This document shows, one piece after another, positions 7,411 through 48,430 of a DNA stretch of 64,000 nucleotides (positions are counted from its first letter, which is position 1; each line of letters starts with the position of its first letter). The notes under the pieces are model-generated. The model worked only from the letters and a program-made list of their open reading frames with translations, did not search any database and was not told where the DNA came from. The translations under genes and the position numbers were made by a program. This DNA is from Patescibacteria group bacterium (GTDB taxonomy: Bacteria; Patescibacteriota; Patescibacteriia; GWA2-46-9), in assembly GCA_041660005.1 (NCBI GenBank), contig JBAZXG010000001.1, positions 71,689 through 135,688 on the forward strand, in the 5' to 3' direction.

Positions 7411-7446
7411 TTACATATTTTTGCGCGTACGCGCAAAAATATGTAA
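7411..7446. promoter_or_regulatory. 36-bp perfect palindrome TTACATATTTTTGCGCGTACGCGCAAAAATATGTAA
   Basis: Read directly from the sequence. Lies in the 400-bp intergenic region upstream of the DHH phosphoesterase gene. Confidence 0.6.
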
Positions 7447-16525: not shown

Positions 16526-16745
16526 AACTAGTCTCGAGGCCGGAGGCCGAGGACGTTATGTTCGTAGAGTGAAAAAATTCCCATAAGATCAATGTTGGTA
16601 GTGACACGTACAAAGAGAGCCACTAACCCTTAGTGTCTGGTCGTGACAGTGAGATCAGAGTCTACGGTGTTGGTTCACAGTTATTTACTTTTAACTTGCA
16701 GTTTTGCCTTTTGCCTTTTAATTTTTGAATTATCCCCTTTTATAT

Positions 16746-16774
16746 TTGACATTTCCCCCGATTTGTGCTAGGAT
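16746..16774 (+). promoter_or_regulatory. Sigma70-like promoter TTGACA-N17-TAGGAT at the 3' end of the conserved element tail
   Basis: Read from sequence. Sits about 250 nt upstream of the first high-GC island gene. The equivalent position in the 47-kb copy has TTGACA followed by a weaker -10. Confidence 0.45.
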
Positions 16775-17024
16775 GCCAGGTTCTTTTAGAAATGTGCCAC
16801 CAGCATATTTCTAGAAGGATGGTCAGTCCCGCTCATTGAAAAGTGAATAGGATTGAACACCGCGCAAACCTGGCGTGGTGTACTTTCGTGTTCGAAAGTT
16901 CACGAAAGTCCATCAAAGGTAAAAATAAATAATCCAAACCGGACCGCTACACCAAGCGGCAACCGCCACCTTATCAACTCACTAGCAAGTCGCGCACGAT
17001 CGGCGACAAGGAGCGAGAACTCAA

Positions 17025-18098: not shown

Positions 18099-18973
18099 TG
18101 ATGACCATACCACAGGTGGCGCTTTACATCGCCATCATGGTTCTCGGAATGGTTGCCTTCGGGTGGCCGTTCTGTGAGTTCGTACTCGTGATGACGCTCA
18201 TAGTCATTGGCATCTTTGCTGTCCTCTTCTGGCAACGCCGGACAGAGTGGCAGGAGTTGCCGGAAGACGTGCGTTCAGCGCGAGAAAACAGAACCGAATA
18301 TTGGCTCGCGATGACGGGTCGTTTCCCGTCCAATAACATCGTCTGGTGCGGTTGGATTGCAGCGGCAATGCTCTCGAGCATCATCGCCGTAACTCATCCA
18401 GGTCCAAGCGCGATTGACTACCTCACGGCGCCGCAATCGTCGCGGGCGAGAGAAATCACGCAACAGACCGACCGAGAAATCGCTGCCTTGTGGCATCTCG
18501 CCAAAACGGGAAGTTTCAGCGGCGGCGAGTCGGTCACAACCGAAGACGAAGCGAAGGAAGCTGGTGACTGGCGACGGTGGCCGATGAGTCTGTACATGTG
18601 GTTCATGGCCCTCGTCCTCCTCGTCCCGACCATCTGGGACGAACTGAGGGAAGCGGGAAGAAGCGCTGTCGATCATACGTACCGCCACTTTGGTGGTAAC
18701 GTCACGATCACAGGACCTGGAGCCGGCTTCGCAACAAGCCTGCTCAACGCGGCGGCACGTCGCGCTGGAACCACGCTAACGTTGCCGACCACACCCCCAA
18801 CCCCTGCTCCCGCACCCGTACTGGGCGCACCGCCATCAACCGGCTCGTCCATTGACCGTGCGGTTGCATCAATCACGTCGAGCACGTTCCTACAACACGT
18901 GCTCGCCAGCCTGATCCCGGAATTACTCGACCGAGTATCCTGGGGTCGTATCCTGCATAGGAGAACAGCATGA
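18098..18973 (+). CDS. Hypothetical membrane protein (high-GC island 1)
   Basis: GGAGG RBS. Start overlaps the preceding stop (TGATGA). Several TM segments and a Pro/Thr/Ala-rich linker. Confidence 0.55.
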   Translation: MMTIPQVALYIAIMVLGMVAFGWPFCEFVLVMTLIVIGIFAVLFWQRRTEWQELPEDVRSARENRTEYWLAMTGRFPSNNIVWCGWIAAAMLSSIIAVTHPGPSAIDYLTAPQSSRAREITQQTDREIAALWHLAKTGSFSGGESVTTEDEAKEAGDWRRWPMSLYMWFMALVLLVPTIWDELREAGRSAVDHTYRHFGGNVTITGPGAGFATSLLNAAARRAGTTLTLPTTPPTPAPAPVLGAPPSTGSSIDRAVASITSSTFLQHVLASLIPELLDRVSWGRILHRRTA

Positions 18974-20394
18974 ACTTCTGGACCGAAAACTGGAAACGGA
19001 TGGCCGGCGGCCTGCTCTTGCTCGCCGTTCTCACTCACTACGTGATGGGCGTCGGCTACTTTGCCTCGCTCATCACCGCAACCTGCATGGCGGGTGCAGT
19101 CTATGCCCGCTCGTGGCTCATCGCTTCCACCTGGAAGCGAACGGGTAACGCCGTCCTCGCTGCGCTCGTCGTGTTCGTCGCTTGGAGGGTAGCCACCAAC
19201 TACCTGCCAGAAACGATGAACACGCTACGCAAAAACGTCTCGGTGACGGACTCCGTCAGCAAGCAGCTGACGAAGGGCGATACTACCGGCGTGTCGATCT
19301 CGGCTGGACGCCGAGAGTTCTGGCAGGAGAGGGCTGAACTAAAGCTCAGGGCAGACATGGACCTCGCGTTCTGGCGCTGGAATCGGTACAACACCGATGA
19401 CGCGGGGAGGCAAAAAGAAGAGGCAGAGGCAATTGCGAGCTACCGCACCCGGATCGACGAGCTAGAGAGGCAGTTCTCAATGACTCCTCCGACGATGTCG
19501 AAGGTCGTCGAAGGAGTTCGCACAGGAGCTTCTGTCGCCGTCGGCTTCGACTGGCGAGGATGGTTGATGAGCTTCACTACCGGTGAAGTCATGTCATACT
19601 GCATCTTCGTCATTCTGGTCCTCGCTGCTCTGCGGCTCGCGTTCGGCCTCTGGACCAGCCCGGGTTCCATCCTGGGCCGGCTCGGCTACTGGCAGCAAGT
19701 GGCTGTTGCGATCCTGATCGTCGCCGTCGCCAGTGGAACGGCGGTCTGGGGCTACAGTGGCCGGTTCTTGAGCGACGCGGTACAGGCCGGAGCTCACAAG
19801 GTCCTAGACGGCGTTGTCGAACTCAAAGGGAAGGCCATACTGGTCAACCCCGAGGGAACGAACGTCGTGCTGGACGGGTCGGAGGAGATGCCAATCCAGG
19901 TTGCCATCTACCACGGACTCCTTCAGCCGGTCAGACTCGAACACCCTGAGACGAGAGTCTACGCCTGCCGACTCGACGACTACGGCGAGGAAGACGGGTG
20001 CGGCTGGGGTCTGCGACGCCTTTTGGAAGGCTCAACCACGACCACAACGATGCCGCCCACAGCGGCACCGCAACCAACTGCTACTGCGGGTGCAACGCCC
20101 GCTACGGCCCCCGTCTATGTAGACGGGAAGGCAACCTACACAGAGTGGGATGGCGTCCTCAGTGCCGGGGAAGAGGTGTGCACGTACGGGCCAACGAACA
20201 CACCGCAAAACAAGCCCCTGCGCATCTTGGACGCGTGGGGAAAGAGCCTGCTCGGTCTGGACGAGCAGGGCGAGGAGAAACTGCAAGTTCCAGGTAGCGG
20301 TCACACCCTTGGCGACTACAGCGGCGTAATCTGCCGCCAAGCCGTCGAAGACGGCACAGCGCTGCGTATCCGGCCCGGATACGCAGGAACATGA
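18970..20394 (+). CDS. Hypothetical membrane protein (high-GC island 1)
   Basis: ATGA start/stop overlap with the upstream gene. TM segments, a TTTTMPPTAAPQPTATAGATPATAP linker, and a Cys-containing C-terminal domain. Confidence 0.55.
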   Translation: MNFWTENWKRMAGGLLLLAVLTHYVMGVGYFASLITATCMAGAVYARSWLIASTWKRTGNAVLAALVVFVAWRVATNYLPETMNTLRKNVSVTDSVSKQLTKGDTTGVSISAGRREFWQERAELKLRADMDLAFWRWNRYNTDDAGRQKEEAEAIASYRTRIDELERQFSMTPPTMSKVVEGVRTGASVAVGFDWRGWLMSFTTGEVMSYCIFVILVLAALRLAFGLWTSPGSILGRLGYWQQVAVAILIVAVASGTAVWGYSGRFLSDAVQAGAHKVLDGVVELKGKAILVNPEGTNVVLDGSEEMPIQVAIYHGLLQPVRLEHPETRVYACRLDDYGEEDGCGWGLRRLLEGSTTTTTMPPTAAPQPTATAGATPATAPVYVDGKATYTEWDGVLSAGEEVCTYGPTNTPQNKPLRILDAWGKSLLGLDEQGEEKLQVPGSGHTLGDYSGVICRQAVEDGTALRIRPGYAGT

Positions 20395-20531
20395 AACCCA
20401 AGACGGGACTCGCCCAACAAAGGAGGCGGGCGGGTCCCAAGAACCGAAGAGCGAGAGCAGGACCATGCCCACCACGCATGTCTCCCTGCCTCGCTCTTTT
20501 TCGTTACCTAAAAAACAGCTATGCTTCCCAC

Positions 20532-21284
20532 ATGGAAACAGAAACACTACGTGTCGGCATTCTCTTTAACGGTTTTGTGACTGCTATTGTGAGCGCAACT
20601 GCTTTTGCGCTTCTTCTTTTTTTGGTGCAACGATGGAAGACCCTAACCCCTGGCATGCGCTCCTACGCCTGGTTTTGGGGCTTTACCAGTCTCGTCTGGC
20701 TCGCAGTTACCATTCGCTACATCATGGTTGTTGCCGGCATTAACACGCCGAGCATCCATCGAGTGAATGAATTCATTGTAGAAACTGCCGTGTTTGGTTC
20801 TGGCATTGCTCTCTATATTTACCTTGGACGACAACTTTTCAAAAAACGTCTCGTCACTATTATTCTTGGAGTTACATCAACGACGTTAGCTTGTTTGGCA
20901 CTTTGGCAACTCTTGCAGCCGAATGCTTTTCACCCCGCTGAAATAACTTTTTTCACGGCAGATCCAAAACCGAACTTTTTTTTTCTCGTAATCTTTGGCA
21001 TTTTGGCAACGCTCGGGCTACTCATGCTTTTCTACCACTCGATCAAACGTTTTCGCATATGGCGACGAGGCAATCGAGAGACTGTACCCTACGAAGCACT
21101 TTACTCCGCCAGTCTCATTGTTTACGTTATGCTCGGCATGATTGACCAGGCAAAACTTATTATTGACTGGCCGCTCATTGTCTTTCGCATCTTGTACACA
21201 GCCGTGTTTCTGGCAGCGTACCTCATTATGGCCGCAGAAGAAGCTCGTCGCAAAGACGCCTTTATCATCAGTTCAGAAAATTAA
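20532..21284 (+). CDS. Hypothetical polytopic (about 7-TM) membrane protein
   Basis: Host-like GC. The tracked ORF 20391..21284 crosses the island boundary; the start at METETLRVG is more plausible. Confidence 0.5.
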   Translation: METETLRVGILFNGFVTAIVSATAFALLLFLVQRWKTLTPGMRSYAWFWGFTSLVWLAVTIRYIMVVAGINTPSIHRVNEFIVETAVFGSGIALYIYLGRQLFKKRLVTIILGVTSTTLACLALWQLLQPNAFHPAEITFFTADPKPNFFFLVIFGILATLGLLMLFYHSIKRFRIWRRGNRETVPYEALYSASLIVYVMLGMIDQAKLIIDWPLIVFRILYTAVFLAAYLIMAAEEARRKDAFIISSEN

Positions 21285-21297
21285 AATTTTATGCAAA

Positions 21298-21330
21298 CAC
21301 AAAATGCCCGCCAGTGGCGGGCATTTTGCA
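21298..21330 (+). terminator. Rho-independent terminator
   Basis: AAAATGCCCGCCAGTGGCGGGCATTTTGCAG. Confidence 0.75.
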
Positions 21331-21380: not shown

Positions 21381-21662
21381 CTAAACTAAATGTTTAGTAA
21401 TGAATGCCCTACCTGACCCCGACTTGAAATACTTCTCAAGAATGAACGCTGTCTTTTTGTCTCTAACACCGATATAAAAAGAAAGCTCCACCGGTAAACG
21501 ACCTTTAGTTGCAGGGACGAAACCTTTTCGATGTCTAGCTATCCTTTCTTTAAGATCTGCGGTGCAACCAACATAATACCCATCCTTACATTTGAGTGAA
21601 TAGATATAGTACATACATGCCCGCTTACTCTCCAAACAATAAATGATAACTGGCTTTGCCAA
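21381..21662 (-). CDS. GIY-YIG nuclease-domain protein
   Basis: IYCLESKRACMYYIYSLKCKDGYYVGCTADLKERIARH matches the GIY-YIG motif layout. Confidence 0.65.
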   Translation of the reverse strand: MAKPVIIYCLESKRACMYYIYSLKCKDGYYVGCTADLKERIARHRKGFVPATKGRLPVELSFYIGVRDKKTAFILEKYFKSGSGRAFITKHLV

Positions 21663-21930
21663 GCCGAAGCTTGAAGAACGAGGATGGCTTTGCCAAGCCG
21701 AAGCTTGAAGAACGAGGATGGCTTTGCCAAGCCGTAGCTATGGCGAAGGATTGTGGGCTGCATCAAACAAACATCTCAGTCCGACTACGCTAAGGCTTCG
21801 TCGTGACAGCCTTCGCTAAACCTAAGTAACTGGCTTTGCCAAGCCGAAGCTTGAAGAACGAGGATGGCTTTGCCAAGCCGTAGCTTGAAGAACGAGGATG
21901 GCTTTGCCAAGCCGTAGCTATGGCGAAGGC
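21641..21930. repeat. Tandem 33-34-bp repeats (TGGCTTTGCCAAGCCGAAGCTTGAAGAACGAGGA) in two blocks of three, abutting the tRNA-Asp 3' end
   Basis: Six copies read directly: 21641, 21675 and 21709 (variant), an 80-bp spacer, then 21821, 21855 and 21889 (variant). The variant unit ...GCCGTAGCTATGGCGAAGG precedes both the spacer and the tRNA. Confidence 0.8.
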
Positions 21931-23181: not shown

Positions 23182-23261
23182 AGCAGCTGATTTTACTTCA
23201 CGCGGTCGATAGGTTCTACGCAAGGGAAAGAAATAAAATAAATAAATTCGTCTGTGCCAAC

Positions 23262-23345
23262 CGTCGCTTATAGAACGAAAGTGGCTTGCCAGCCGTAGCT
23301 CACAGAACAAGGATGGCTTGCCAGCCGTAGCTCGAAGAGCGAAGG
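23262..23345. repeat. Two further tandem ~33-bp repeats of the same family (TGGCTTGCCAGCCGTAGCTC...), abutting the tmRNA 3' end
   Basis: Same family as the 21641-21930 repeats, with the GCGAAGGCTGG junction variant again next to the RNA gene. Confidence 0.7.
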
Positions 23346-29003: not shown

Positions 29004-29382
29004 GTCTACTTTCTTGCTTGTCCAAGAAAGTAGACGGAAAGAACGACACCCTGAGGACTCGGCTGAGGTATGACTGCACTCCGAGAACCGATGGTCGTGA
29101 ACTCGTCGTTAGCACTCCTCAAACAGCACGACCATTACTTCGGTTCTCTCCACTGGTCATCACCGACGCCGATCCTATGGGATTCTGCGCCAATTTTGCT
29201 CAAACCCCATTGCCGACCGAGGAAGGCGAACGGACGAAATGCAGGTGATTAAGCGACGATGCTGTTCGAAGCATTAGCAAGTTCATCGTCGCCACCTGCA
29301 CTGAGGAACGTTCGCCGACAACAGTGTCGGCACAGGGCGGGTTTTCTTTCGTCTATTTCTTTGCCCGAACAAAGAAATAGAC
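29004..29382 (-). repeat. Structured noncoding element family, copy 2 (inverted orientation)
   Basis: The reverse complement matches copy 1 from the hairpin GTCTATTTCTTTG...CAAAGAAATAGAC through the ~170-nt core to the hairpin GTCTACTTTCTTG-GACAAG-CAAGAAAGTAGAC. Its 3' end faces the RRM gene start. Confidence 0.75.
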
Positions 29383-31167: not shown

Positions 31168-31303
31168 ACCCGCTCACGCGGGATCTTGCGCGGCGGGCCA
31201 CAGCGATGATCTCGTTGTTGGCCCGCCACCCCCCCTTTACTATTTAACTTCTTACAGAACCAAAAGACCCCGCCAACTGGCGGGGTCTTTTGGTTAAACT
31301 CTA

Positions 31304-32693: not shown

Positions 32694-32905
32694 TCAAGTT
32701 CGCTGTTCCGCGTAAACATCCATAATGCATCCTCAAACTTACCTTGTGCGGCAGCTCTAACTTTTTACCAACAACGACGAAGCAATACTCCCTAAGGGGC
32801 CGGTTCCCTACTCCTTCATTTCTTGAGGAGTAAATACCCTGCTCTCCCCTTCCCTAAACGCCGCCTCTTGACTGTTGTACGAATGTACAATAAAATGAAA
32901 AAGTT

Positions 32906-33499
32906 ATGGGAAGGAAAAAAGGCAAACAAAAAAAACAAAACGCCAGCATCGAACTTCGTCGTTTTTACACTGAACACCAACGCATGCCGAGCTACCGCGA
33001 AGCCGCGACACTCTTCAGGTATCGATCGCCGAACGCTATCACCTACTGGGTCAACCACTGGGCCTCCAAGGGTGTTATACGCCGCGACCGCACCGGTCGG
33101 CTGTTGCCCGGGCCGGCACTGTTGCCTATTCGTCTTCTTGGTGAAGTACGAGCCGGCTTCCCTTCTCCAGCTGAGGAAGAAAATATCGATACCCTATCGC
33201 TCGACGACTGGCTGGTCGGCAACAAAGAGGCAAGTTTTATGCTGAAAGTTTCTGGTAACTCCATGCTCGAGGCGGGCATCCGCCCTGGCGACTATGTGCT
33301 CATCGACCGCGGCCGAACACCCAGAGTTGGAGACATTGTTATTGCTGAAGTCGACAATGAATGGACAATGAAATTTTTTGAAAAACGAGGAACCCGCGTG
33401 GTGCTGCGTGCGGGCAACAAACTCTACCCAACAATCGTCCCGCAGCAAGACCTAACCATTGCCGGCGTTGTTACTTCGGTCATTCGTAAATACAAATAA
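32906..33499 (+). CDS. lexA: LexA-family repressor (S24 peptidase)
   Basis: N-terminal winged HTH, then a GNSM serine motif with a downstream Lys (MKFFEKRG) catalytic dyad. Confidence 0.8.
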   Translation: MGRKKGKQKKQNASIELRRFYTEHQRMPSYREAATLFRYRSPNAITYWVNHWASKGVIRRDRTGRLLPGPALLPIRLLGEVRAGFPSPAEEENIDTLSLDDWLVGNKEASFMLKVSGNSMLEAGIRPGDYVLIDRGRTPRVGDIVIAEVDNEWTMKFFEKRGTRVVLRAGNKLYPTIVPQQDLTIAGVVTSVIRKYK

Positions 33500-39292: not shown

Positions 39293-39478
39293 AAAAATAG
39301 TATTACTCCTTTGTTGCCTGCGTCACTCGGAAATAAAAAGACCGCGCTAGTTACTGCACGGCGCCTGAAGACTTTACTAGAAAACCCGAATAAATGCAAG
39401 CCCTGACGGTTAAAGTCTTTTCACTGCATCAAACATTCAAGGCCAATACTCACCCACAAAAGACCCCGCCACAGCCGT

Positions 39479-39500
39479 TTCCATGTACTAGTACATGGAA
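39479..39500. promoter_or_regulatory. 22-bp perfect palindrome TTCCATGTACTAGTACATGGAA (site 1 of 5)
   Basis: Read directly. Lies just downstream of the last paralog gene. Confidence 0.7.
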
Positions 39501-39539
39501 ATTTATCAAGCAGTTAGTTAACAAAACAATAAAACAACG

Positions 39540-39869
39540 CTAGTACGCATCAACCCCGAACGGTCTCCAATTGTCAAATATTTGTCCTTGAGAGAGAAAA
39601 GTAAGGATAAGAAAAAATACAACGAAACCACAAAAAATTATTACATACGTTCTTTTGGTTGACCGAAAGCAGAATGCTGAAATCAAAAAACCAAACAAAA
39701 GGTAAAAAGGATATAACCAAAGTGCCCATGAAGGCCCGCCAAATAACGACAAATTAAATCGAGTTAATCTAGATTCTTCGCTTAATGTTATCAAGAGATA
39801 ACTAATGACTAAACCTATAACAATAAGAACGAATTTTCGCATTGCTGATCTAAAGCTAATTGATCGCAT
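39540..39869 (-). CDS. Small 3-TM membrane protein, paralog 1 (B-type) of a five-gene tandem array
   Basis: 109 aa. Conserved WLYPFYLL core and C-terminal QGQIFDNWRPFGVDAY. About 90% identical to 40788..41108. Confidence 0.8.
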   Translation of the reverse strand: MRSISFRSAMRKFVLIVIGLVISYLLITLSEESRLTRFNLSLFGGPSWALWLYPFYLLFGFLISAFCFRSTKRTYVIIFCGFVVFFLILTFLSQGQIFDNWRPFGVDAY

Positions 39870-40033
39870 AACTAATTTCTCCTTTGCTAATTAATAATTG
39901 TATATATTGTGAGCCATTGTACTCAATTTTCTTTTGCGGCTCTTCATATTCTTTGCTAACCACGAGTGTAGTGTCTGTTTTACCATTGAAGCGACCAACG
40001 GTAAAGCACTGGCTCATACCTTTTATGCTTACG

Positions 40034-40055
40034 TTTCCACGTACTAGTACATGGA
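40034..40055. promoter_or_regulatory. Palindrome site 2 (TTCCACGTACTAGTACATGGAA, one mismatch)
   Basis: Lies inside a roughly 105-bp intergenic block that is almost identical to the one at 41230-41335. Confidence 0.7.
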
Positions 40056-40096
40056 AATATATAAATAATCTGTGAATAAGAGAAAATCAGGTAGTA

Positions 40097-40429
40097 CTAA
40101 TAGGCGTCGACCCCGAACGGTTTCCAGTTGAAAAATATTTGACCCTGCGTCAAATAAAAAAACAGTAAAAAAACAACGATGAATCCCAAAACAACTCCTA
40201 AATAGGTACGTCTTCCAAAACGAAAAATCACAGCCGAGAGCAAGAACCCCAAAAGTAAATAAAAGGGATATAGCCAGTTTGCCCAGAAAAAAGTTCCAGC
40301 GCCAATTGATGTAATTTTTTTGAATTCACTTATGCCTAAAAACAGATAGCTTAACAAAAAACCGACCAGCCAAAAAAGTAGTGCTCTTATAACTTTTAAT
40401 ATACTAATCTTTTTCATAAGTAAACTCAC
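40097..40429 (-). CDS. Small 3-TM membrane protein, paralog 2 (A-type)
   Basis: 110 aa, MSLLMKKIS... ...NWKPFGVDAY. About 85% nucleotide identity to 41336..41668. Confidence 0.8.
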   Translation of the reverse strand: MSLLMKKISILKVIRALLFWLVGFLLSYLFLGISEFKKITSIGAGTFFWANWLYPFYLLLGFLLSAVIFRFGRRTYLGVVLGFIVVFLLFFYLTQGQIFFNWKPFGVDAY

Positions 40430-40458
40430 CTTTGCTGACGACTAACGATCACGTAATA

Positions 40459-40767
40459 CTAATAGGCATCAACACCAAACGGTCTCCAATTATCGAATAG
40501 GTGACCCTGTAGTGCATAAAACCAAAAAATAAAAAGGATAACAAACCCGATAAAAATCACTACATAGACCCACCTATTGGCGCGGAATACTGAAGCTGAA
40601 ATAAAAAAGGAAACGAAAAAGTATAATGGGTAAAGCCATAATGCCCAGGAAGCGCCGCCAAGGGGAACAAAATTCATGTGAGTAACTCCCGTATTCTCAC
40701 TTAGGCTTAATAACAAATATAAAATAAGTAGACCAAGAACGAAAAATTCAAAAGTCTTCATTGCCAA
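40459..40767 (-). CDS. Small 3-TM membrane protein, paralog 3 (divergent C-type)
   Basis: 102 aa, ...ALWLYPLYFF... ...DNWRPFGVDAY. Confidence 0.8.
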   Translation of the reverse strand: MAMKTFEFFVLGLLILYLLLSLSENTGVTHMNFVPLGGASWALWLYPLYFFVSFFISASVFRANRWVYVVIFIGFVILFIFWFYALQGHLFDNWRPFGVDAY

Positions 40768-40787
40768 CTAATAACGATCAAACAACA

Positions 40788-41108
40788 TTAGTAAGCGTCA
40801 ACCCCAAACGGTTTCCAGTTATCAAATATTTGACCTTGGGAGAGAAAGATAAAAATAAGAAAAAATACAACGAAACCACAAAAAATTACTACATACGTTC
40901 TTTTGGTTGACCGAAAGCATAATGCTGAAAGCAAAAAACCTAACAATAAATAAAAAGGGTAGAGCCAATTTGCCCAGTAACGAGTGCCCAACCCAATCGA
41001 TGTGACTTTATAAAACTCACTAACACCAAGAATGATGTAAGAGATCAGTAAACCCAAAAATAGAATCCCCAAAGAGCGCAGTAGTGATTTAATACTAATT
41101 AAATGCAT
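40788..41108 (-). CDS. Small 3-TM membrane protein, paralog 4 (B-type)
   Basis: 106 aa, ...CFRSTKRTYVVIFCGFVVFFLI... ...DNWKPFGVDAY. Confidence 0.8.
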   Translation of the reverse strand: MHLISIKSLLRSLGILFLGLLISYIILGVSEFYKVTSIGLGTRYWANWLYPFYLLLGFLLSALCFRSTKRTYVVIFCGFVVFFLIFIFLSQGQIFDNWKPFGVDAY

Positions 41109-41273
41109 AACTAATTTCTTTTTTACTAATTAACAATCGTATGTACTGTGAACCGTCATACTCAATTTTCTTTTGCGGCTCTTTGTATTCTTTGCTAACC
41201 GCAAGCGTGGTATCTGTTTTTCATTTGAAGCGACCAACGGTAAAGCACTGGCTCATACCTTTTATGCTTACGT

Positions 41274-41295
41274 TTCCACGTACTAGTACATGGAA
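41274..41295. promoter_or_regulatory. Palindrome site 3 (TTCCACGTACTAGTACATGGAA)
   Basis: Duplicate of site 2 within the tandemly duplicated unit. Confidence 0.7.
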
Positions 41296-41335
41296 ATATA
41301 TAAATAATCAGTGAATAAGAGAAAATCAAGTAGTA

Positions 41336-41668
41336 CTAATAGGCGTCGACCCCGTATGGTCGCCAATTATGAAATATTTGACCTTGTGTCAAGTAGGTGA
41401 ACAATAAAAAAACGACGATGAATCCCAGAAAAACTCCTAAATAGGTACGTCGTCCAAAACGAAAAATTGTAGCAGATAACAAGAACCCCAACAGAAGATA
41501 AAAAGGATAGAGCCAGTTTGCGTAAAAAAGTGTCCCCCAACCAACTGATGTAATTTTCTTAGCTTCACTTATGCTTAAGAACAGATAGCTTAACAAGAAA
41601 CCGACCAGCAAAAAAAGTAGTGCTCTTAGAACTTTTAACATACTAATCTTTTTCATAAATAAACTCAC
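41336..41668 (-). CDS. Small 3-TM membrane protein, paralog 5 (A-type)
   Basis: 110 aa, MSLFMKKIS... ...HNWRPYGVDAY. Start overlaps the 3' end of the upstream giant gene by 26 nt. Confidence 0.8.
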   Translation of the reverse strand: MSLFMKKISMLKVLRALLFLLVGFLLSYLFLSISEAKKITSVGWGTLFYANWLYPFYLLLGFLLSATIFRFGRRTYLGVFLGFIVVFLLFTYLTQGQIFHNWRPYGVDAY

Positions 41669-44600
41669 CCTTACTAATTAATAAATGAATAGTATTTAAT
41701 CCGCCGTAAACTATTTTCTCTGTCTTTTCCTTATAGGGCTTAACCATGAAGATACTTTCGTTTGTTTTCCCAGTGTATGTACTCTTAACCGCTAGTTCCT
41801 CAGGGATAACGATTTTCTGCATAAACTTTTTAAGCGTACTGCTCTTATCATACGCTACGCTATAGGTGAAGACAATCGACCTTTTTAAAATCGAAGTGTC
41901 ACCATAACGGACACCGGTGAGTTCAGCCTTGCCAGCGCTTTTTTTGTTTTTAACTTCAAAAACCAATGTAACCGTATTACCTGCGTCGTCGCTTACCGTA
42001 TAGGCGTTATTCGTTTGTGTAACCTGAGCGGTTGATATCTGGTCACTCCCCACAACGACCGGGTTTTCATCGGTCCCGTCGAACCACACGCGAACATCTG
42101 GGAATGTTTGGTCAATAGAAAAATCAAGGTCCTGCTCTGGCTCCTGATTACCCACTAAGTCGATCGACCGATATGCAATATGATGTGGCCCTTCGGTCAT
42201 AACCACTAAGGGCTGCTCGTAGCGCTGCCATGTTGTCTCAGTATCAAGACGATACTCGGTTACTGCGACACCGGAATCAGCATCAGTCGCGTGAAGCACA
42301 AGAGTAGCCGGACTGCGAAACCAGTCAGGAACAACCGAATCTCCGGTTAGTGTTGCTGAAGTTAGCGGTGCAACGAAGTCATATGCTGGCGAACTTCCGG
42401 CAACTGCTGACGCGGCATAGATTTCAAACTCTCCGTTTCCGCTGAAATCATACGACATTGCAGTGTCAGCGCTCAAAGGCGTCACCACAAGTTCCGCGCG
42501 GCTACCAACTTGGACGGGTACCCGCTGGTACGAAACGTCTTTTGTTATGGTGCCGTCGTAGGTACTGACCGAAAGATCGAATGTGCCGGTGTCGGTACCG
42601 GTAAGCGACACAGTGAACGGTTCTTCTGGTAGAAAGGCAAATTTATTATGTCCAATGGTTTCATAATAAACGCCAGGGATCATATTCTCCACAAGCCCGT
42701 TAGTAGTTAAACCTGCATGATTACCGGCGCTGTCGTAGATATCCAGCGTAACCGGACTATGGACGGATATAAACTTACCGTTAAGTCTGCATCCGGCGCT
42801 CGTCAGGGTAATACCCGGCGGTATATCGGCAACACCCGGCTCGCCCGAAGTCAGTAGACTCGCAACGAGACTGCGGACCGAGGTCGTACTCGCCATTTTC
42901 CCGTGATCTGCATTGCGCACATAATAGCTTTGTTTGACAAGCGGAGCGACAAAATCACTACTCACCAAAGGAACGGTTTTATCTCCCGCGCCGATACGCA
43001 GGTAATATTCATCACTTGCTCGCTCAACGATTCCAGTGATGGTCGGTGAGTCACAGCCGGCAATGTTGTAAGCGTCGATATGAGAATCCTTAAACGAACC
43101 AACGGGTGCAAAAGGATAAGCATTTGCCGTTTGCGCTGCTTCTTGATTTAGCCCTTTGTCGCCCAGTTCGTTGTACATATCAATAAAGTTCAGAATCTTT
43201 GGCTGGCTATTTACAGTGAGGTCATAATAGTAACCTCCGTTCGTTTTAAAATACCTCTGACCGGGAAGTAAATTATAAAGGGAGTACATGTTTTCACCTA
43301 ACTGCTTTATTTTACTGGGATTGATAATCGCGGACATGTTAAAGTCATCACCCCACAGTAAATCTTTGAGTGCTTTTGGCGCCCCGAGGTGAGGAGTACC
43401 GATAAAAATGAGCTTGGCAATACTGTTATCATGCGGATGAGTATTCGTGTAATAATCTGCAACTACTCCGCCCATGCTATGAGCAACCACATCGACGACA
43501 TCACTGTGTGTTTGCTCTTTAATGGCAGAAATTTTTTTAACCAACTGAGCACTAGGAGTACCGATATTTTGCCGCCAATCATAGGGCATAATAAAAAGAT
43601 TTATATTTTCCGTATAGCCATTCGCTTTGAGTTCGTTAATGAGGCCACTAAAATAATCATAAGCAATGAACGGAACACCATTATTGATGGTACGAATAAC
43701 ATCACCCGGCTGAATTTCGGGATCAGTTGGCGTCCCGTCAGGGTGCATAGCCAGAACATCAAGAAAACTGTCCGTTAGATCAACGAGCAAAGAGGCAACG
43801 TCCAGCCAAATTTTATTGTTTCCCTTTTTAAGCTCACTCCCTGCAATGCCGGGCAGAAGAAGCACGGGGCGTTTATTGAATGACGGCGCTTCAGGTGGTC
43901 GAGAGAACCAGGTCATGGAGGTCGTAGTGCACGTGCTAACATCTTGTCCTTTACCTTCAGGATTACTTTGAGCGTATGGACCAGACACATCTCCCCACCA
44001 ATTGCCGTCCAGATTATATAAATCTACAGCATCACAAATTACTCCCGCTCTTTTGTTATTAAAATAGGCATAGTACAGACCATTGTCAAAAAAACTATTG
44101 CCACGGAGCTCAACAGAAACAGCTCCAAATTCTGTATTTGATAAGAGGGCGATTGCAGCAGCACCGTTTTGATGAAATGTATTATCAATAATATGCCCTT
44201 CTCCTCCTTCGATGATGACTCCCCAACCAGCCAATACATTACCTTGCTCGTCCTGATTCTGTGCAATTTCATTCCGCTCAAGCGTCGCAACAGATCCATA
44301 CAGAATAATTCCAGCCCCTGAGTAAATACCATCTACAATGTGCGAATCTTTGATCGATATGTTTGCCTGTACTGCGTAAATCTGTCCAGGCCTATCCTCT
44401 TCATAGCGTGATCCGCCACTATAACGCACTATAGTATGACTTATCTCCCCCGTACTGCCTGGTGCAAAAAACAAATCTGACCAATCGTAACCATGGGGTG
44501 TCGTTGCGTTACCATCATTATTGGTATCTCCGCCAACCGTATCGTCTTTGTATGATGTGAAAATAACTGGACTGTCGGTTGTTCCTGCTGCAATGAGCTT

Positions 44601-44876
44601 CCCTTCTACTTTAATCTGACCCCACGCCGACGCTTTAATAATTGTTCCTGGCTCAACCGTCAAAGTAACACCCGGGTTAATAACGAATTGATTAAAAATA
44701 GTATGCACACCATCTTGAGGGCTCCAAGTTGTATCGTGGTCAAGGTAAGTCGGATTCGGCCCCACTGCTAAAGTTGGTTGAGCTAACGAAAGTATCCCAA
44801 ACAAAAAAGCCGCAGCAACAAATGCTGCGCCATAACCGCTTCTCGCTGCTATTTTTATTTTACTTTTACCCTCCAT
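41643..44876 (-). CDS. Large secreted multidomain protein: signal peptide, right-handed beta-helix, LCAT-like alpha/beta-hydrolase (lipase/phospholipase-acyltransferase), C-terminal beta-sandwich domains
   Basis: Signal peptide MEGKSKIKIAARSGYGAAFVAAAFLFGILSLAQPTLAVG. Beta-helix repeats at about residues 60-330. Lipase motifs PVLLLPGIAGSEL, PYDWRQN, VVDVVAHSMGGVV (GxSxG) and FIGTPHLGAPKA. Possible GTG start at 44915; the ATG at 44876 begins the signal peptide. Confidence 0.8.
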   Translation of the reverse strand: MEGKSKIKIAARSGYGAAFVAAAFLFGILSLAQPTLAVGPNPTYLDHDTTWSPQDGVHTIFNQFVINPGVTLTVEPGTIIKASAWGQIKVEGKLIAAGTTDSPVIFTSYKDDTVGGDTNNDGNATTPHGYDWSDLFFAPGSTGEISHTIVRYSGGSRYEEDRPGQIYAVQANISIKDSHIVDGIYSGAGIILYGSVATLERNEIAQNQDEQGNVLAGWGVIIEGGEGHIIDNTFHQNGAAAIALLSNTEFGAVSVELRGNSFFDNGLYYAYFNNKRAGVICDAVDLYNLDGNWWGDVSGPYAQSNPEGKGQDVSTCTTTSMTWFSRPPEAPSFNKRPVLLLPGIAGSELKKGNNKIWLDVASLLVDLTDSFLDVLAMHPDGTPTDPEIQPGDVIRTINNGVPFIAYDYFSGLINELKANGYTENINLFIMPYDWRQNIGTPSAQLVKKISAIKEQTHSDVVDVVAHSMGGVVADYYTNTHPHDNSIAKLIFIGTPHLGAPKALKDLLWGDDFNMSAIINPSKIKQLGENMYSLYNLLPGQRYFKTNGGYYYDLTVNSQPKILNFIDMYNELGDKGLNQEAAQTANAYPFAPVGSFKDSHIDAYNIAGCDSPTITGIVERASDEYYLRIGAGDKTVPLVSSDFVAPLVKQSYYVRNADHGKMASTTSVRSLVASLLTSGEPGVADIPPGITLTSAGCRLNGKFISVHSPVTLDIYDSAGNHAGLTTNGLVENMIPGVYYETIGHNKFAFLPEEPFTVSLTGTDTGTFDLSVSTYDGTITKDVSYQRVPVQVGSRAELVVTPLSADTAMSYDFSGNGEFEIYAASAVAGSSPAYDFVAPLTSATLTGDSVVPDWFRSPATLVLHATDADSGVAVTEYRLDTETTWQRYEQPLVVMTEGPHHIAYRSIDLVGNQEPEQDLDFSIDQTFPDVRVWFDGTDENPVVVGSDQISTAQVTQTNNAYTVSDDAGNTVTLVFEVKNKKSAGKAELTGVRYGDTSILKRSIVFTYSVAYDKSSTLKKFMQKIVIPEELAVKSTYTGKTNESIFMVKPYKEKTEKIVYGGLNTIHLLISKGEFIYEKD

Positions 44877-44979
44877 TATTATTAAATTAGTCCAATCTAA
44901 AAAATTCTGCAACACGACTTATGCACAAGCCCAGAAGTGTCAGCAGCTTCCGTGTATTCATCCCGAGGCATGTCGAGGG

Positions 44980-44993
44980 ACTAGTACATGGAA
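44980..44993. promoter_or_regulatory. Palindrome site 4 (half-site ACTAGTACATGGAA) in the promoter region of the giant gene
   Basis: The right half is intact; the left half is replaced by GTCGAGGG. Confidence 0.5.
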
Positions 44994-45277
44994 ATATATG
45001 ACTCTAAAATTCATCAATCGTTGGTTACCTTAACTTTGTTAACTAAAAAACAACAAAAAAACACCTTTGTGCCAAAATCATGACCTCAAACGTGACAACG
45101 ACCATGATTGCTTTTTTGGACTTTTTGAGGCAAGATAGCCCCGTTGTTCTTTAATAATAAATTCGGACGGACACTTAAATTGCCAATTTAATCGGCACTT
45201 TGGGCGTCCGTCTTGAATAAAGATAGCGACGAAGGAGCGGGACAAGAATCATGGCTACGAACACAGGAGGCAATTCC

Positions 45278-46213
45278 ATGACAGAGCAGAGTCAGAAGAC
45301 AGAAATCGACACCCAGATGGGTGAAAGATTCCCGGTACTCGGAGGCGACGTCCTGGCCTTCTTGGTACTGATGGCCACTCGAGGGCGGGTGCTGGTTGGG
45401 TCGTTCGGTGACCACCAGTACATCCGCGTCGAATGTACCGAAGGGCACGAAAAAGACGCGAAATGCGTTCTCGACGGCCTCAAAAAGCCGTGGGCGCCAG
45501 TCAATGGCCAACCACCATTTTCTTTCGAGGCCCTAGTGGCGAAGTATGAGGCACAGCGAACGGTTCGCGGCGCCTACGCTGCTCTCAGGGTCGATCGGGA
45601 TCGGGACGCCCACTGGAACATCCATGCACCGGCCTGGACGCTGCCAGAAAAAACTGAAGAGGTAGCAATACCCGTCATCAGCTTCGTGCTGCCGGTTCCG
45701 GCGGTAACCGACCCGGACTTCAGTAGACTTTCGCGCCGAGCCAACAAAGTTCAGGAAGACCTCAACAAGAAAGAACGAGAGCTTATGCAGTTGGCGCTCG
45801 AGGTCGCTCGCGGACGGCTGCTGAGCCAAGCGATGGAGGCACGGATCACCGCAATGACTAAGGCGAGCGCTCAAGTTCGCGAGGGTGCTCACACTCTGCG
45901 GCAGCTGCATGCCAACGTTCCCATCGATGGTGGTGGGCGGGTAACCGTGATTGCCAGCTTGTCAGACGACAAACTGGCAGATATTGAGCAGCGGCTCGGG
46001 ATCGTCAACCCGTCGGCTTCGTCCTGGCGCTGGTGGAGCAACAAGGACCGAGCACAGGCTATCTGCGCTCGTGAAGATGGGGAGCTTACCGAAGCGCTTC
46101 GCTACTGTCTGTCGGGCGAGCAGGCTCGTCAGCTGGCGCGCATGCTGGGGTACCAGATCTCCGCCGAGATACCAACGGAGAGGTGGTGCCAACTGGTTGC
46201 CGAGTTCCGGTAA
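45278..46213 (+). CDS. Hypothetical protein (high-GC island 3)
   Basis: AGGAGG RBS before ATG at 45278. About 62% GC. Terminator hairpin at 46264-46295. Confidence 0.5.
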   Translation: MTEQSQKTEIDTQMGERFPVLGGDVLAFLVLMATRGRVLVGSFGDHQYIRVECTEGHEKDAKCVLDGLKKPWAPVNGQPPFSFEALVAKYEAQRTVRGAYAALRVDRDRDAHWNIHAPAWTLPEKTEEVAIPVISFVLPVPAVTDPDFSRLSRRANKVQEDLNKKERELMQLALEVARGRLLSQAMEARITAMTKASAQVREGAHTLRQLHANVPIDGGGRVTVIASLSDDKLADIEQRLGIVNPSASSWRWWSNKDRAQAICAREDGELTEALRYCLSGEQARQLARMLGYQISAEIPTERWCQLVAEFR

Positions 46214-46263
46214 CCACCGAGAAGAAGCGAACAATCCGCAACCGGACCTGGCCAGTAAGCCAG

Positions 46264-46295
46264 GTGATGGGGCGCCACAAAAAAGGCGCCCCATC
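46264..46295 (+). terminator. Rho-independent terminator
   Basis: GATGGGGCGCCACAAAAAAGGCGCCCCATC followed by a T-rich run. Confidence 0.7.
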
Positions 46296-46493
46296 TCTAT
46301 TTCTAATAAGAATGAATGGATTTTAAAATATAAAGAAGAGTGTTTGTTTCTTGAATAGTAGAAAGTCGTTCTACGTTGCTAACTCATAATAACTTTTTAA
46401 AATAAAAAGTTTCATAAAATCTATAAAGCATCAACCCAGACATCCGAAGATGCCTGGGTTGCTCGTGTCGGCCGGACACGCACGGTTGCGGAC

Positions 46494-46901
46494 TCAGATG
46501 CCGGTCTTGTGATACGGCTCCAAACGATCGGAGCCGTCGAGTCGCAGCTTATAACCGCAACTCGTCATCACAGACCACCGCTTGCGAAGCAGCCTCTCCA
46601 AGAGCTGTCGGTACACCGGTTTGGTGTGCCACAGCATCATAGAGAAATACTGTTTCACGAGCTGAGCGATCTGAGTGGGCGTGATCCAGAGTTGGACGTC
46701 GATGTCCTGAGCGAACCCATCCTCTCCTGGAACAAACGCTTTTGCAGCGATGTTCAGGCAGAAACGGGTGCTCGGGGTCTCACGATCCACTCCTCCCTCG
46801 CCGCCACCAAGCAGAAGCTCGGCGCCCTGGACGGTCTCCAACTGGACGTATGGCTTGCCGGTCGCCCCGCAAACCCGCGCCTCCAGAGTGGTCCATTCCA
46901 T
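46494..46901 (-). CDS. Hypothetical protein (high-GC island 3)
   Basis: AAGGAGG RBS on the minus strand. Hairpin terminator downstream at about 46441-46468. Confidence 0.5.
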   Translation of the reverse strand: MEWTTLEARVCGATGKPYVQLETVQGAELLLGGGEGGVDRETPSTRFCLNIAAKAFVPGEDGFAQDIDVQLWITPTQIAQLVKQYFSMMLWHTKPVYRQLLERLLRKRWSVMTSCGYKLRLDGSDRLEPYHKTGI

Positions 46902-47056
46902 ATGGTCCTCCTTTTATTTCCCTATTCTGTAGTCCTCTCCCGAAGGAGTCGGTGTCATCAGAGAAACGTGCAAATATACACCAAGAGAACAGTTTTGTCA
47001 ACGGTAATGTATTAATAACTGCCCCTCGGTAGATTGATTTTATACCCGACCAACAA

Positions 47057-47272
47057 CCCATAGGATCGACGTAGGTAGTGACGAGCGGAGAGAACTGAAA
47101 TAATGGTCGTGCTGTTTGAGGAGTGCTAACGACGAGTTTACGACCATCGGTTCTCGGAGTGCAGTCATGCCACAGCCGAATCCTTAGGGTGTCATTTCCG
47201 CCGAAGGCGGATCGTTCTCCGAAGGACTTTCCGTCTACTTTCTTGGACAAGTCCCGACGTAAAGTCGGGACC
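47057..47272 (+). repeat. Structured noncoding element family, copy 3 (5'-truncated)
   Basis: Core CCCATAGGATCG...GGAGAGAAC...AATGGTCGTGCTGTTTGAGGAGTGCTAACGACGAGTTTACGACCATCGGTTCTCGGAGTGCAGTCATGCC... matches copies 1 and 2. The terminal hairpin is replaced by GTCCCGACGTAAAGTCGGGAC. The conserved tail (ACTTGCAGTTTTGCCTTTTG...TTTTGAATTAT...TTGACA) extends to about 47530. Confidence 0.7.
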
Positions 47273-47557
47273 CCGATTCAATAGATTTTATTAAGAATGG
47301 CGTCGGGACAAAAAGGTAACAATCAGTCTCGAGGTCCCGTCTGACAGGATCGAGGACGTTAAATTTGTTGAGCGAAAAAGAGAAACGTATCTGCTATAGT
47401 TTTTCCACCGTAAGTGGATCCGCAATTGGCGGAAGTTTTTGACTTGCAGTTTTGCCTTTTGATTTTTGAATTATTAGCTGTCCCTTTTGACATCCCCCAT
47501 TGAATCCTTTAACCTGCGGTCAAGGACAAAGACAAATGGGGATAAGGAGAGTGCAAC

Positions 47558-48064
47558 TTGACAACAGCCGCACAAATAGAAAAAGGAAGGGAGCAGATTC
47601 GTTTTGACAACTTCAGTGCCCTAAGGGACAAGGTCGGTGGATCGTTTACACCATGGGGCGACGGAATCAGAGTCACTGAGACAATGATCCAAGCATTCGT
47701 GGCGGTAAGCGGTGAGGACCACTGGATTCACACCAATAGGGAACGTTCACGGAGCGAGGGACCGTTCGGCGACATCATTGCGCCAACCTCACTCATCGTC
47801 TCCGCGGCATACCGGTCAGGGTTCGATCCCGGCTTCGATATCACCAATGCGACCGTTCAGCGAACCATTCACGGCACGTTCAGTGTGCTCGGCGTAGTAC
47901 CGGTAGACACCACCATCCACTCCCGAAGCCGATTTCTTGCCGTAGCCAATCTCGACGCTTTCGGAACCAGATTGACGTTTGAGTTCCAGGTGAGAAGGGA
48001 GGGGCACTCCCATCTCGTACTTTCGGGAGAGATTTCCGTCCTGTACAATGCGCCGGCCAAATGA
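47558..48064 (+). CDS. MaoC-like (hotdog-fold) dehydratase
   Basis: AFVAVSGEDHWIHTNRERSRSEGPFGDIIAPTSL matches the MaoC dehydratase motif. AAGGAG RBS with TTG start. Confidence 0.55.
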   Translation: MTTAAQIEKGREQIRFDNFSALRDKVGGSFTPWGDGIRVTETMIQAFVAVSGEDHWIHTNRERSRSEGPFGDIIAPTSLIVSAAYRSGFDPGFDITNATVQRTIHGTFSVLGVVPVDTTIHSRSRFLAVANLDAFGTRLTFEFQVRREGHSHLVLSGEISVLYNAPAK

Positions 48065-48140
48065 CCGACGCCGCCTACCAACCGCAACCAACTGTCCGAG
48101 AAGGAGTAGTTTATCCCCACTGCTCCTTCAACCCCCTTGT

Positions 48141-48162
48141 TTCCATGTACTAGTACATGTGC
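48141..48162. promoter_or_regulatory. Palindrome site 5 (TTCCATGTACTAGTACATGtgc, right end degenerate)
   Basis: Read directly. Followed by a CCCCGCCCCAGAGGGGACGGGG hairpin. Confidence 0.6.
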
Positions 48163-48204
48163 TTGCCTCAGAATACATTACCCCGCCCCAGAGGGGACGG
48201 GGTA

Positions 48205-48430
48205 TGTAATGGTGATCCCACTTCGCTAACCTCCTTCGCCTAGGCTACGGACGGTCAAGAACCTCCTTCGCTCCCACTTCGTATCAAACTACGGCGTGAC
48301 ACAGCAATGCTACGGCCGGTCAAGGACCTCCTTCACCTAGGGCTACGGCGGGTCAAGGAGCTACGAGGGATATTTTTGTCTTCTGCAACGGTAACCTCGC
48401 GGCAAGCCGACGAGGTATTGGGGACAAAAA
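48205..48430 (+). repeat. Expanded copy of the valS-upstream element, with three internal tandem copies of a ~30-bp motif (CTACGGNCGGTCAAGRANCTMC)
   Basis: GGTGATCCCACTTCGCTAACC... then three CTACGG-CGGTCAAG units, then the identical 32-nt core GGTAACCTCGCGGCAAGCCGACGAGGTATTGG. Confidence 0.65.

Follow-up and report, generated by a model that had tools for sequence, protein, structure and literature searches.

Regulators of the TrpR family bind palindromic operators of about 20 bp, often located upstream of the regulator's own gene (PMC9413887). The trp operator DNA of Escherichia coli in PDB 1TRO is TGTACTAGTTAACTAGTACA (PMC2504314), and HisR (YerC of Bacillus subtilis) has a site upstream of its own gene in about half of genomes (PMC9413887). 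Here we consider a 22-bp palindrome, TTCCATGTACTAGTACATGGAA, in 64 kb of DNA from a Patescibacteria group bacterium (positions 71,689 to 135,688 of contig JBAZXG010000001.1, assembly GCA_041660005.1; this whole stretch is referred to below as the window), where it accompanies genes for a secreted lipase-like protein and an array of small transmembrane (TM) proteins. From comparisons of sequence, we think the chances somewhat better than even that the palindrome is the operator of a dimeric helix-turn-helix (HTH) regulator of the YerC/YecD type, within the TrpR family, encoded outside the window.

The window was searched for the 22-mer with up to three mismatches, in comparison with shuffled sequences, and separately for single arms. 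The first search gave four sites, against an expectation from the shuffles of zero, the arm search added the half-site that we call site 4 (Table 1), and neither found any further copy in the remaining 55 kb. A sequence-only reading of this DNA had claimed a perfect 22-bp palindrome present five times and confined to this locus. The confinement within the 64 kb was borne out, and there are indeed five sites, all falling within 9 kb (39.4-48.2 kb), but one is perfect, two near-perfect, one partial and one a half-site, and site 2, said to start at 40034, starts at 40035. The perfect copy, site 1, is in full a palindrome of 24 bp (39478-39501). Sites 2 and 3 are duplicates of each other, inside a duplicated unit of c. 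0.9 kb. At site 4 the second arm is replaced by CCCTCGACA (minus strand), and at site 5 the first 19 nt are intact, all three mismatches being at the outer end of the right arm (replaced by TGC). The flanks of sites 1, 2/3, 4 and 5 are unrelated to one another. Five of the six occurrences of ACTAGT in the 64 kb are within the sites, and no variation of the palindromes was seen within the population, among 23 near-identical contigs. The repeat is real, rare and conserved in sequence.

How widespread is it? With Y or R allowed at the variable position, the 22-mer was found at one locus among 185,579 species genomes (one genome per species), on five metagenome contigs (L003-L007) with GC contents from 32% to 52%, and on no viral contig. 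That so rare a sequence is nevertheless present in genomes of 32-52% GC implies that its sequence-specific recognition is conserved. A 30-mer extension had no meaningful match in phage and plasmid records, and this, with the failure to find PHROG or PDB homology for the proteins encoded between sites 4 and 5, led us to reject a phage or plasmid origin. In the searchable literature there is no instance of the 16-nt core, and a search for the 10-nt core brought up only an unrelated match. The single species-genome match (L001, 5494-5519, on contig CAYJSA010000003.1 of a Saccharibacteria metagenome-assembled genome, MAG) is a 26-bp palindrome, AGTTCCACGTACTAGTACGTGGAACT, in frame inside a tsaD-like coding sequence (…LRKQFHVLVRGTKG…), with an assembly gap c. 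70 nt away; if not an artefact of assembly, this is a remarkable occurrence within a coding sequence. Among the metagenome contigs, L004 and L007 extend the palindrome to 30 bp, and these two and the window carry the inner 22-mer of L003 with GTTTCC...GGAAAC at the outer positions. The copies in L004 and L006 lie c. 50 nt past the stop codons of orthologous DUF6580 genes (proteins 68% identical), and the copy in L006 shows two symmetric changes, T>C and A>G, which leave the dyad intact. There are no copies in the 20 kb around typA of the closest relatives. We also draw attention to two other features of L006: a different, imperfect palindrome of 34 bp with the same ACTAGT core (TCTTGATTTAATGCACTAGTACGTTGAGTCAAGA; 925-958), at the edge of a GC-rich patch, and a hybrid site, TTTCCATGTACTAGTAC followed by GATGTAGC (4744-4761), between two small GC-rich open reading frames (ORFs).

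The pointer to a regulator is L003 (1 kb, 32% GC), in which the palindrome (260-285) ends 10 nt before the ATG for a 147-aa protein matching the Pfam family Trp_repressor (PF01371; E = 4e-14; score 52.8 bits, cut-off 27), and a degenerate copy, AGTTCTACGTACTAGTACGTGGGACT, is present downstream of the gene (804-829). Homologues of this protein detected number 223, with PF01371 in every one of the 120 listed; homologues are named as YerC/YecD TrpR-related in their sources and come from MAGs of Nealsonbacteria, Parcubacteria and Patescibacteria. Seven lineages of the PF01371 gene were examined (L003, L008, L018, L028, L031, L036 and L037; 1-8.5 kb per locus), and each of the seven has a single lineage-specific long palindrome, in two or three copies that bracket the gene (Table 1), with no extra copies in these loci beyond the third of L037. 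The consensus AGTwCCAyrkACTAGTmyrTGGwACT is common to five of the seven. The type found in L003 and the window matches the commonest type at nine of 13 half-site positions, L036 being intermediate; the palindrome of the window is a member of a family that brackets a TrpR-like gene. Upstream copies end 8-72 nt before the regulator start codon, and for downstream copies the distance to the following co-directional gene is 8-46 nt (269 nt in L036). The downstream palindrome of L008, L031 and L037 has a central TAG that serves as the stop codon of the regulator gene. Two of the L037 copies come after a canonical terminator and before a gene, a promoter-proximal rather than a terminator position.

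The palindrome type tracks the predicted recognition helix of the adjacent protein: RGK[IV]TNVQK is found with the common type (type B), RGKTINVQK with the type of L003 and the window, KDKITNVQK with an ACCGGT-centred type, and RGKISNVHK with a TTCGAA-centred type. This arrangement resembles that of E. coli TrpR in the possession of dyad sites with TGTACTAGT / ACTAGT, in the PF01371 HTH gene and in the autoregulatory placement, and the core of the palindrome, TGTACTAGT, is one half of the E. coli trp operator. It differs in having a single central CTAG with arms extending to 22-30 bp, whereas the trp operator has two CTAGs 8 bp apart, in a protein of c. 170 aa that belongs to the YerC/YecD branch, has an additional C-terminal region and does not conserve the DNA-contact residues, and in the presence of copies on both sides of the gene. 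The HisR regulons of Firmicutes share with it the YerC/YecD subfamily name, lineage-specific palindromes of c. 20 bp and a site upstream of the regulator's own gene, but their consensus, cacTTTAnnnnnnTAAAgtg, is unrelated in sequence, and HisR controls histidine genes, which are not involved here (PMC9413887); the Parcubacteria genes sit among glycolytic and other genes. In L008, L018, L028 and L036, the neighbours of the YerC/YecD gene are often genes of central carbon metabolism (PPDK, PfkB, aldolase, enolase, phosphoglycerate mutase, GAPDH, pyruvate:ferredoxin oxidoreductase and FBPase), which hints at a role in the control of carbon metabolism.

If the palindrome is an operator, the following picture can be drawn. 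A regulator of the YerC/YecD type, conserved in Parcubacteria, would be encoded elsewhere in this genome; in related genomes it would bind the palindromes upstream of its own start codon and of the next gene, and when bound it would repress or road-block transcription. The palindrome reaches 24 bp at site 1 and 30 bp in L004 and L007, as would befit a dyad operator of about 20 bp or more, and it lies beside the candidate regulator gene in L003, as its relatives do in all seven lineages. Each of sites 1-4 precedes a minus-strand unit, the distance to the start codon being 17, 103 or 186 nt (17 nt separates site 2 from the ATG of an ORF encoding a 53-aa C-terminal lipase fragment, and likewise site 3 from that of a second, interrupted 3' fragment of the lipase gene). 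They would thus precede successive units, namely the lipase, two units each made up of a lipase fragment and membrane proteins, and typA, so that the lipase and membrane-protein array, and possibly typA, may be under the control of the TrpR-like regulator, with sites 4 and 5 as decayed copies. An operator for a dimeric HTH regulator had already been proposed from the sequence of the window; the 22-mer beside the PF01371 gene of L003 and the homologous palindromes of the seven lineages lend it independent, comparative support, whereas site 5, between convergent gene ends, does not suit it.

Several other considerations weigh against the operator. The link to a regulator comes from one 1-kb contig (L003) together with homology at the level of the palindrome family, in a sample of seven lineages. 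There is no TrpR-like gene in the 64-kb window (the absence of an obvious regulator gene, already remarked on for the locus, holds for the whole of it), in L004-L007 or around typA in the relatives. A promoter consensus scan at the sites found no sigma-70-like promoter overlapping them, so that site 4, previously placed in the promoter region of the lipase gene, does lie 103 nt upstream of the ATG but at no promoter recognized by the scan. Many copies are 27-76 nt past a stop codon, and those of L007 and L004, like site 5, fall where two genes converge, a location at which one would not expect a promoter. An alignment by eye shows that the Parcubacteria proteins have not kept the residues with which E. 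coli TrpR contacts DNA, and the resemblance of TGTACTAGT to the trp operator may for this reason be coincidental. Finally, copies are found at rearrangement junctions, marked by truncated lipase fragments, a half terminator and half or hybrid sites, and GC-rich ORFan segments lie beside the copies in L004, L005, L006 and the window; none of this, nor the inverted repeats of c. 45 bp described below, is predicted by a pure operator model.

Table 1. Palindrome sites and associated features of the window, and palindromes bracketing TrpR-like genes in other lineages
Feature	Position	Strand	Description
Site 1	39479..39500		Perfect 22-mer; 39 nt past TM5 stop, 186 nt upstream of typA ATG
Site 2	40035..40056		TTCCACGTACTAGTACATGGAA, 1 mismatch (TTCCACGTAC...); 40 nt past TM4 stop
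Site 3	41274..41295		Sequence as site 2, 1 mismatch; 40 nt past TM1 stop
Site 4	44980..44993		14-nt half-site ACTAGTACATGGAA (core and one arm); 103 nt upstream of lipase ATG (44876)
Site 5	48141..48162		TTCCATGTACTAGTACATGtgc, 19/22; 76 nt past stop of MaoC-like gene, between convergent gene ends
Site 4 outer flank	44950..44979	-	N9 then TGCCTCGGGATGAATAC, read on minus strand; inverted copy of site 5 flank
Site 5 outer flank	48163..48185	+	TGCCTCAGAATACAT
3.1-kb segment between sites 4 and 5	44994..48140		52.4% GC
130-nt block, copy A	39986..40115	-	Roughly centred on site 2
130-nt block, copy B	41225..41354	-	Centred on site 3
Secreted lipase-like protein	41643..44876	-	1077 aa from ATG; GenBank MFA5954038
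TM array	39540..41668	-	Five paralogous membrane proteins of c. 105 aa, all ending in FGVDAY
TM proteins	41336-41668, 40788-41108, 40459-40767, 40097-40429, 39540-39869	-	
Lipase C-terminal fragment, intact	39856-40017	-	53 aa; 46% identical to lipase residues 1034-1074
Lipase C-terminal fragment, disrupted	c. 41109-41260	-	Homologous to last c. 45 codons of lipase
Half terminator	39458..39470	-	GGCGGGGTCTTTT; 3' arm only, complete terminator of the same kind at 31258-31295
L008 palindromes			AGTACTACGGACTAGTCTATGGTACT and AGTACCACGAACTAGTCCGTGGTACT
L018 palindromes			AGTTCGGTGGTTCGAACCACCGAACT, two copies
L028 palindromes			CCTATAGACCGGTCTGTAGAA and CCTATAGACCGGTCTATAGG
L031 palindromes			AGTACCACAGACTAGTCTGTGGTACT and AGTACCATAGACTAGTCCGTGATACT
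L036 palindromes			AGTTCCACAGACTAGTCTATGGTACT and AGTTTCATAGACTAGTCTGTGGAACT
L037 palindromes			AGTACCACAGACTAGTCTGTGGTACT, three copies; third 132 nt upstream of neighbouring peptidase gene

The position of many copies 27-76 nt past the stops of co-transcribed genes raises the question of whether the palindrome acts as RNA, as a hairpin in untranslated regions that would be a processing site, a stability element or an unconventional terminator. The hairpin does form in predicted folds, and the extended flanks are self-complementary with genome-specific bases (GC...GC in L005, GT...AC in L007), but in 101-nt windows around sites 1-4 the z-scores of folding are unremarkable (+0.81 to -1.13). 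One-arm transitions more often keep a G-U pair on the sense strand (eight) than give C-A (three), an asymmetry that by our own count is not significant (binomial p about 0.11). Conservation of 22-26 nt of primary sequence between genomes of 32-52% GC would not be expected of a structural hairpin, and Rfam 15 gave no match at gathering score in the window, nor any at E <= 1 in 39300-41400. An intrinsic terminator, one of the alternatives raised earlier, is disfavoured: the palindrome is not a GC-rich hairpin, has no T-tract on either strand and has a loop of 0-4 nt, while this organism uses canonical terminators, in the form of GC-rich hairpins with T-tracts (at 21300, 28537, 31258 and 51472), and the L037 copies come after one of that kind. 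On balance, an RNA element of any sort is quite improbable.

A different regulator, encoded within the window, might be the one that binds. Two candidates are present, a LexA-like repressor (32906-33499) and a TrmB-like protein (5569-6306). A likely LexA box, TTGTACGAATGTACAA (32875-32890), has the same TGTAC and GTACA half-sites as the palindrome core, TGTAC-TA-GTACA. Archaeal TrmB sites have the form TACT-N3-AGTA, to which TACTAGTA bears some resemblance. However, the half-sites of the palindrome are 2 bp apart rather than the 4 of the LexA box, or 0 rather than the 3 of TrmB sites, and such differences normally abolish binding by a fixed dimer. Neither the lexA nor the TrmB-like gene has the palindrome in its own upstream region, and the association across genomes is with the TrpR-like gene, in lineages of which the commoner palindrome type (four of seven) is without TGTAC half-sites. 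We therefore consider control by either protein to be very improbable. The likely SOS box TTGTACGAATGTACAA overlaps a TTGACT-N17-TACAAT promoter upstream of the LexA-like (Peptidase_S24) gene, which itself overlaps dinB, and this suggests that the LexA motif of the lineage may be TGTAC-N4-GTACA. Operator motifs of Lactobacillus type (cre, CopY, GntR/YtrA and others) were also considered, and none matched.

Between 44876 and 37496 only the minus strand is used, and the order along it is lipase, TM1, site 3, disrupted lipase fragment, TM2, TM3, TM4, site 2, intact fragment, TM5, site 1 and typA. The lipase-like protein consists of an N-terminal hydrophobic, signal-like segment, a beta-helix and an alpha/beta hydrolase of LCAT type, and TM1 is a 110-aa membrane protein. 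Sites 3, 2 and 1 are each 39-40 nt past a TM stop codon, and sites 2 and 3 sit exactly where the homology to the 3' end of the lipase gene starts. The half terminator near site 1 lacks its 5' arm, and the break is 8 nt from the site. The closest TypA proteins to that of the window are 78% and 77% identical, and further homologues (68-75% identical) include proteins annotated as belonging to lineages of the Parcubacteria group. The N-terminal halves of the TM paralogues (35-57% nucleotide identity) are far more diverged than the C-terminal halves, and the combination of a lipase, five diverging TM paralogues and two orphan lipase 3' fragments has a layout like that of polymorphic toxin/immunity arrays with displaced orphan modules.

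Within the duplicated units, a block of 130 nt differs at 2 nt between its copies. It is made up of the last c. 19 nt of a TM gene, a spacer of 40 nt, the palindrome, 17 nt, and the first c. 30 nt of a lipase 3' fragment. The sequence-only reading had described an intergenic block of c. 105 bp with two differences, better conserved than paralogous genes of c. 85% identity. The number of differences and the better conservation were right; the block is longer than that and not purely intergenic, and the rest of the units is c. 75% identical (gaps counted). Gene conversion among paralogues, which had been offered as one explanation, is still a live one, because identity along the units is mosaic, with other stretches reaching 92-97%. 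Might the palindrome then be a functionless relic, copied by segmental duplications of the membrane-protein array and now decaying at sites 4 and 5? The clear duplication of sites 2 and 3 and the degeneracy of the last two are in keeping with this. On the other hand, the flanks of sites 1, 2/3, 4 and 5 are unrelated, at least five other genomes carry the 22-mer too, in unrelated contexts, and the position past the DUF6580 gene is kept in L004 and L006, with a change that is symmetric and preserves the dyad. Conservation of the palindrome across genomes largely refutes the idea of a relic, which we regard as extremely doubtful.

Sites 4 and 5 bracket a 3.1-kb segment containing ORFan genes (320 aa, plus strand; 135 aa, minus strand), a MaoC-like gene (plus strand) and one copy of a repeated non-coding element of c. 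140 nt. That these sites bracket a high-GC island was half right: they do flank 44994-48140, but its GC content is only 52.4%, against 48.7% for the window. The stronger compositional outlier is the low-GC lipase/TM array (41.4% overall, and 35.5% in the TM array). Outside the segment, site 4 (minus strand) and site 5 (plus strand) share TTTCCATGTACTAGT-N9-TGCCTCrGrAT..ATAC, so that an inverted repeat of c. 45 bp, including a palindrome arm, surrounds the island.

Observations of this kind would be explained if the palindromes were recombination or mobility sites, att- or dif-like targets or the terminal repeats of small cassettes, bounding horizontally acquired segments and undergoing rearrangement at the ACTAGT core, with the TrpR-like protein as the cognate DNA binder. 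Segments bounded by two copies are of 544 bp in L003, 603 bp in L005, and 556 bp, 1239 bp, 3.7 kb and 3.2 kb in the window, and ORFan DNA of atypical GC content adjoins copies in L004, L005, L006 and the window. There are hybrid or half sites at 44980 and 48141 of the window, at 4744 of L006 and at 773 of L005, as well as the other ACTAGT-core palindrome at 925 of L006. Sites 4 and 5 have a form like that of attL and attR, and their outer flanks are the c. 45-bp inverted repeats; site 1 abuts the half terminator, and sites 2 and 3 stand at the start of the lipase 3'-end homology. The palindrome lies near the middle of the near-identical 130-bp block, which is what break-induced gene conversion would be expected to produce. 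Single-recombinase dif sites have an 11-6-11 layout, and the extended palindrome of 28 bp in L004 and L007 resembles them in this respect.

Against this, no integrase, transposase or Xer-type recombinase is encoded by window ORFs of at least 140 aa, or in the island; the break points in hybrid sites vary (after ACTAGT, after GTAC or after ACATG); and target-site duplications are lacking. On either side GC skew is negative, with no change of sign across 39-48 kb, where cumulative skew is monotonic, so that this is not a chromosomal terminus with its dif site, and dif would not be expected to be lineage-specific or to bracket one gene in seven of seven lineages. The cassettes are not homologous between genomes, no homology having been found between the GC-rich segments beside copies in different genomes, and relatives supplied no empty site: at typA of the two closest (78% and 77% TypA identity), upstream gene order differs and no empty site is definable. 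Recombination sites in this general sense, whether in place of operators or as a second role, are unlikely. More specifically, the palindromes and the bracketed TrpR-like gene could be an undescribed Patescibacteria mobility or recombination system, comparable to REP/RAYT pairs or Xer-exploiting modules but with an HTH protein as its basis, which would capture foreign ORFan cassettes and toxin/immunity-like units at its palindromes and duplicate, truncate and invert them there. The hybrid sites, the c. 45-bp inverted repeats around the 3.1-kb island and the truncated-gene junctions would then be accounted for; we rate this proposal as distinctly unlikely.

Known elements of comparable appearance fit in part. 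Repetitive extragenic palindromic (REP) sequences bracket genes for REP-associated tyrosine transposases (RAYTs), and in such REPtrons, as here, a gene is bracketed by a lineage-specific palindrome of which solo intergenic copies often lie past the 3' ends of genes. Unlike them, the bracketed gene here is for an HTH protein without an HUH/Y1 nuclease domain, a GTAG-type 5' motif is missing, and copy number is low (five in 64 kb, within 9 kb, and two or three per 3-8 kb locus elsewhere). There was no Pfam match to RAYT (an HUH Y1 transposase) among the window ORFs, and a dispersed element like REP or the bacterial interspersed mosaic element (BIME) was rejected on finding five copies within 9 kb and none in the other 55 kb of the window or in the 20 kb around typA of the closest relatives. 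With dif, as used by integrative mobile elements exploiting Xer (IMEX) and pdif modules, the palindrome has in common a site of c. 28 bp with 11-6-11 symmetry, the pairing of one good with one degenerate copy, modules without an integrase of their own and positions between convergent genes. It differs in the lack of a GC-skew switch and of a Xer gene in the window, and in being lineage-specific, tied to one gene and perfectly palindromic; a chromosomal dif or terminus was discarded on the skew and on the presence of five copies instead of one. The attC sites of integrons are likewise palindromic, perfectly or imperfectly, and stand at the 3' ends of small co-oriented cassettes, most of them ORFan. 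Here, however, the R''/R' (GTTRRRY) core is absent and no IntI is nearby, and primary sequence is conserved rather than structure only; attC was rejected because the palindrome is without GTTRRRY and no integrase is found among the window ORFs of at least 140 aa. Two more candidates were dismissed: parS, which the outer TGTTTC...GAAACA resembles, has a spacing that the palindrome exceeds by 14 bp, and there is no ParB context; and a LAGLIDADG homing site, considered because L008 has a free-standing gene of that type upstream of its TrpR-like gene, would have split halves, whereas these segments are flanked by full palindromes.

Some features elsewhere in the window deserve mention. The repeated non-coding module of the island has three copies, 16141-16760 (-), 29004-29382 (+) and 47050-47520 (-), with a core of c. 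140 nt showing long-range self-complementarity (GAGAACCGATGGTCGTG ... CACGACCATT..TCGGTTCTC). Two copies are bounded by hairpins of the form GTCTAYTTCTTTG..CAAAGAAATAGAC, and the 16-kb and 47-kb copies share an extra stretch, ACTTGCAGTTTTGCCTTTTG..ATTTTTGAATTAT..TTGACATyCCCC, leading into high-GC genes. The 29-kb copy had no Rfam match at E <= 1; the module is possibly a structured RNA, or else a regulatory end shared by a family of islands. A block of 57.5% GC (16970-21290), with four ORFs (357, 311, 474 and 297 aa) without Pfam or PHROG matches, is flanked by this module and by a putative small GIY-YIG-like ORF (21381-21662, recognized by eye), a 34-nt tandem repeat and a tRNA-Asp gene, and looks like an integrated island. 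Related tandem repeats of c. 32-34 nt (GCCAAGCCGWAGCTTGAAGAACGAGGATGGCTTT-like) are at 21651-21919, 23255-23333 and about 48220-48370, respectively beside tRNA-Asp, beside infC/tmRNA and, in a diverged form, a short way past site 5. A 36-bp perfect loopless palindrome, TTACATATTTTTGCGCGTACGCGCAAAAATATGTAA, unrelated in sequence to the 22-mer, is intergenic at 7411-7446, upstream of a gene of the DHH family (7557-8693, -).

TrpR-family operators as a kind are already known, but this palindrome is not described in the searchable literature, in which no paper links YerC/YecD proteins to Patescibacteria. If the palindromes were recombination sites after all, they would represent a new route of cassette turnover in ultra-small genomes. 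If they are operators, the genome should have a cognate YerC/YecD gene lying between palindromes of the GTTTCCATGTACTAGTACATGGAAAC type and encoding a recognition helix like RGKTINVQK, and its regulon would include the secreted lipase and the array of small membrane-protein paralogues, plausibly a locus for host interaction or lipid scavenging. Gene regulation in the Patescibacteria (the candidate phyla radiation, CPR) is almost uncharted, and the candidate pair of a conserved TrpR-like protein and a family of 22-26-bp palindromes, which bracket its gene and vary with its recognition helix, would offer a first handle on a CPR regulon.

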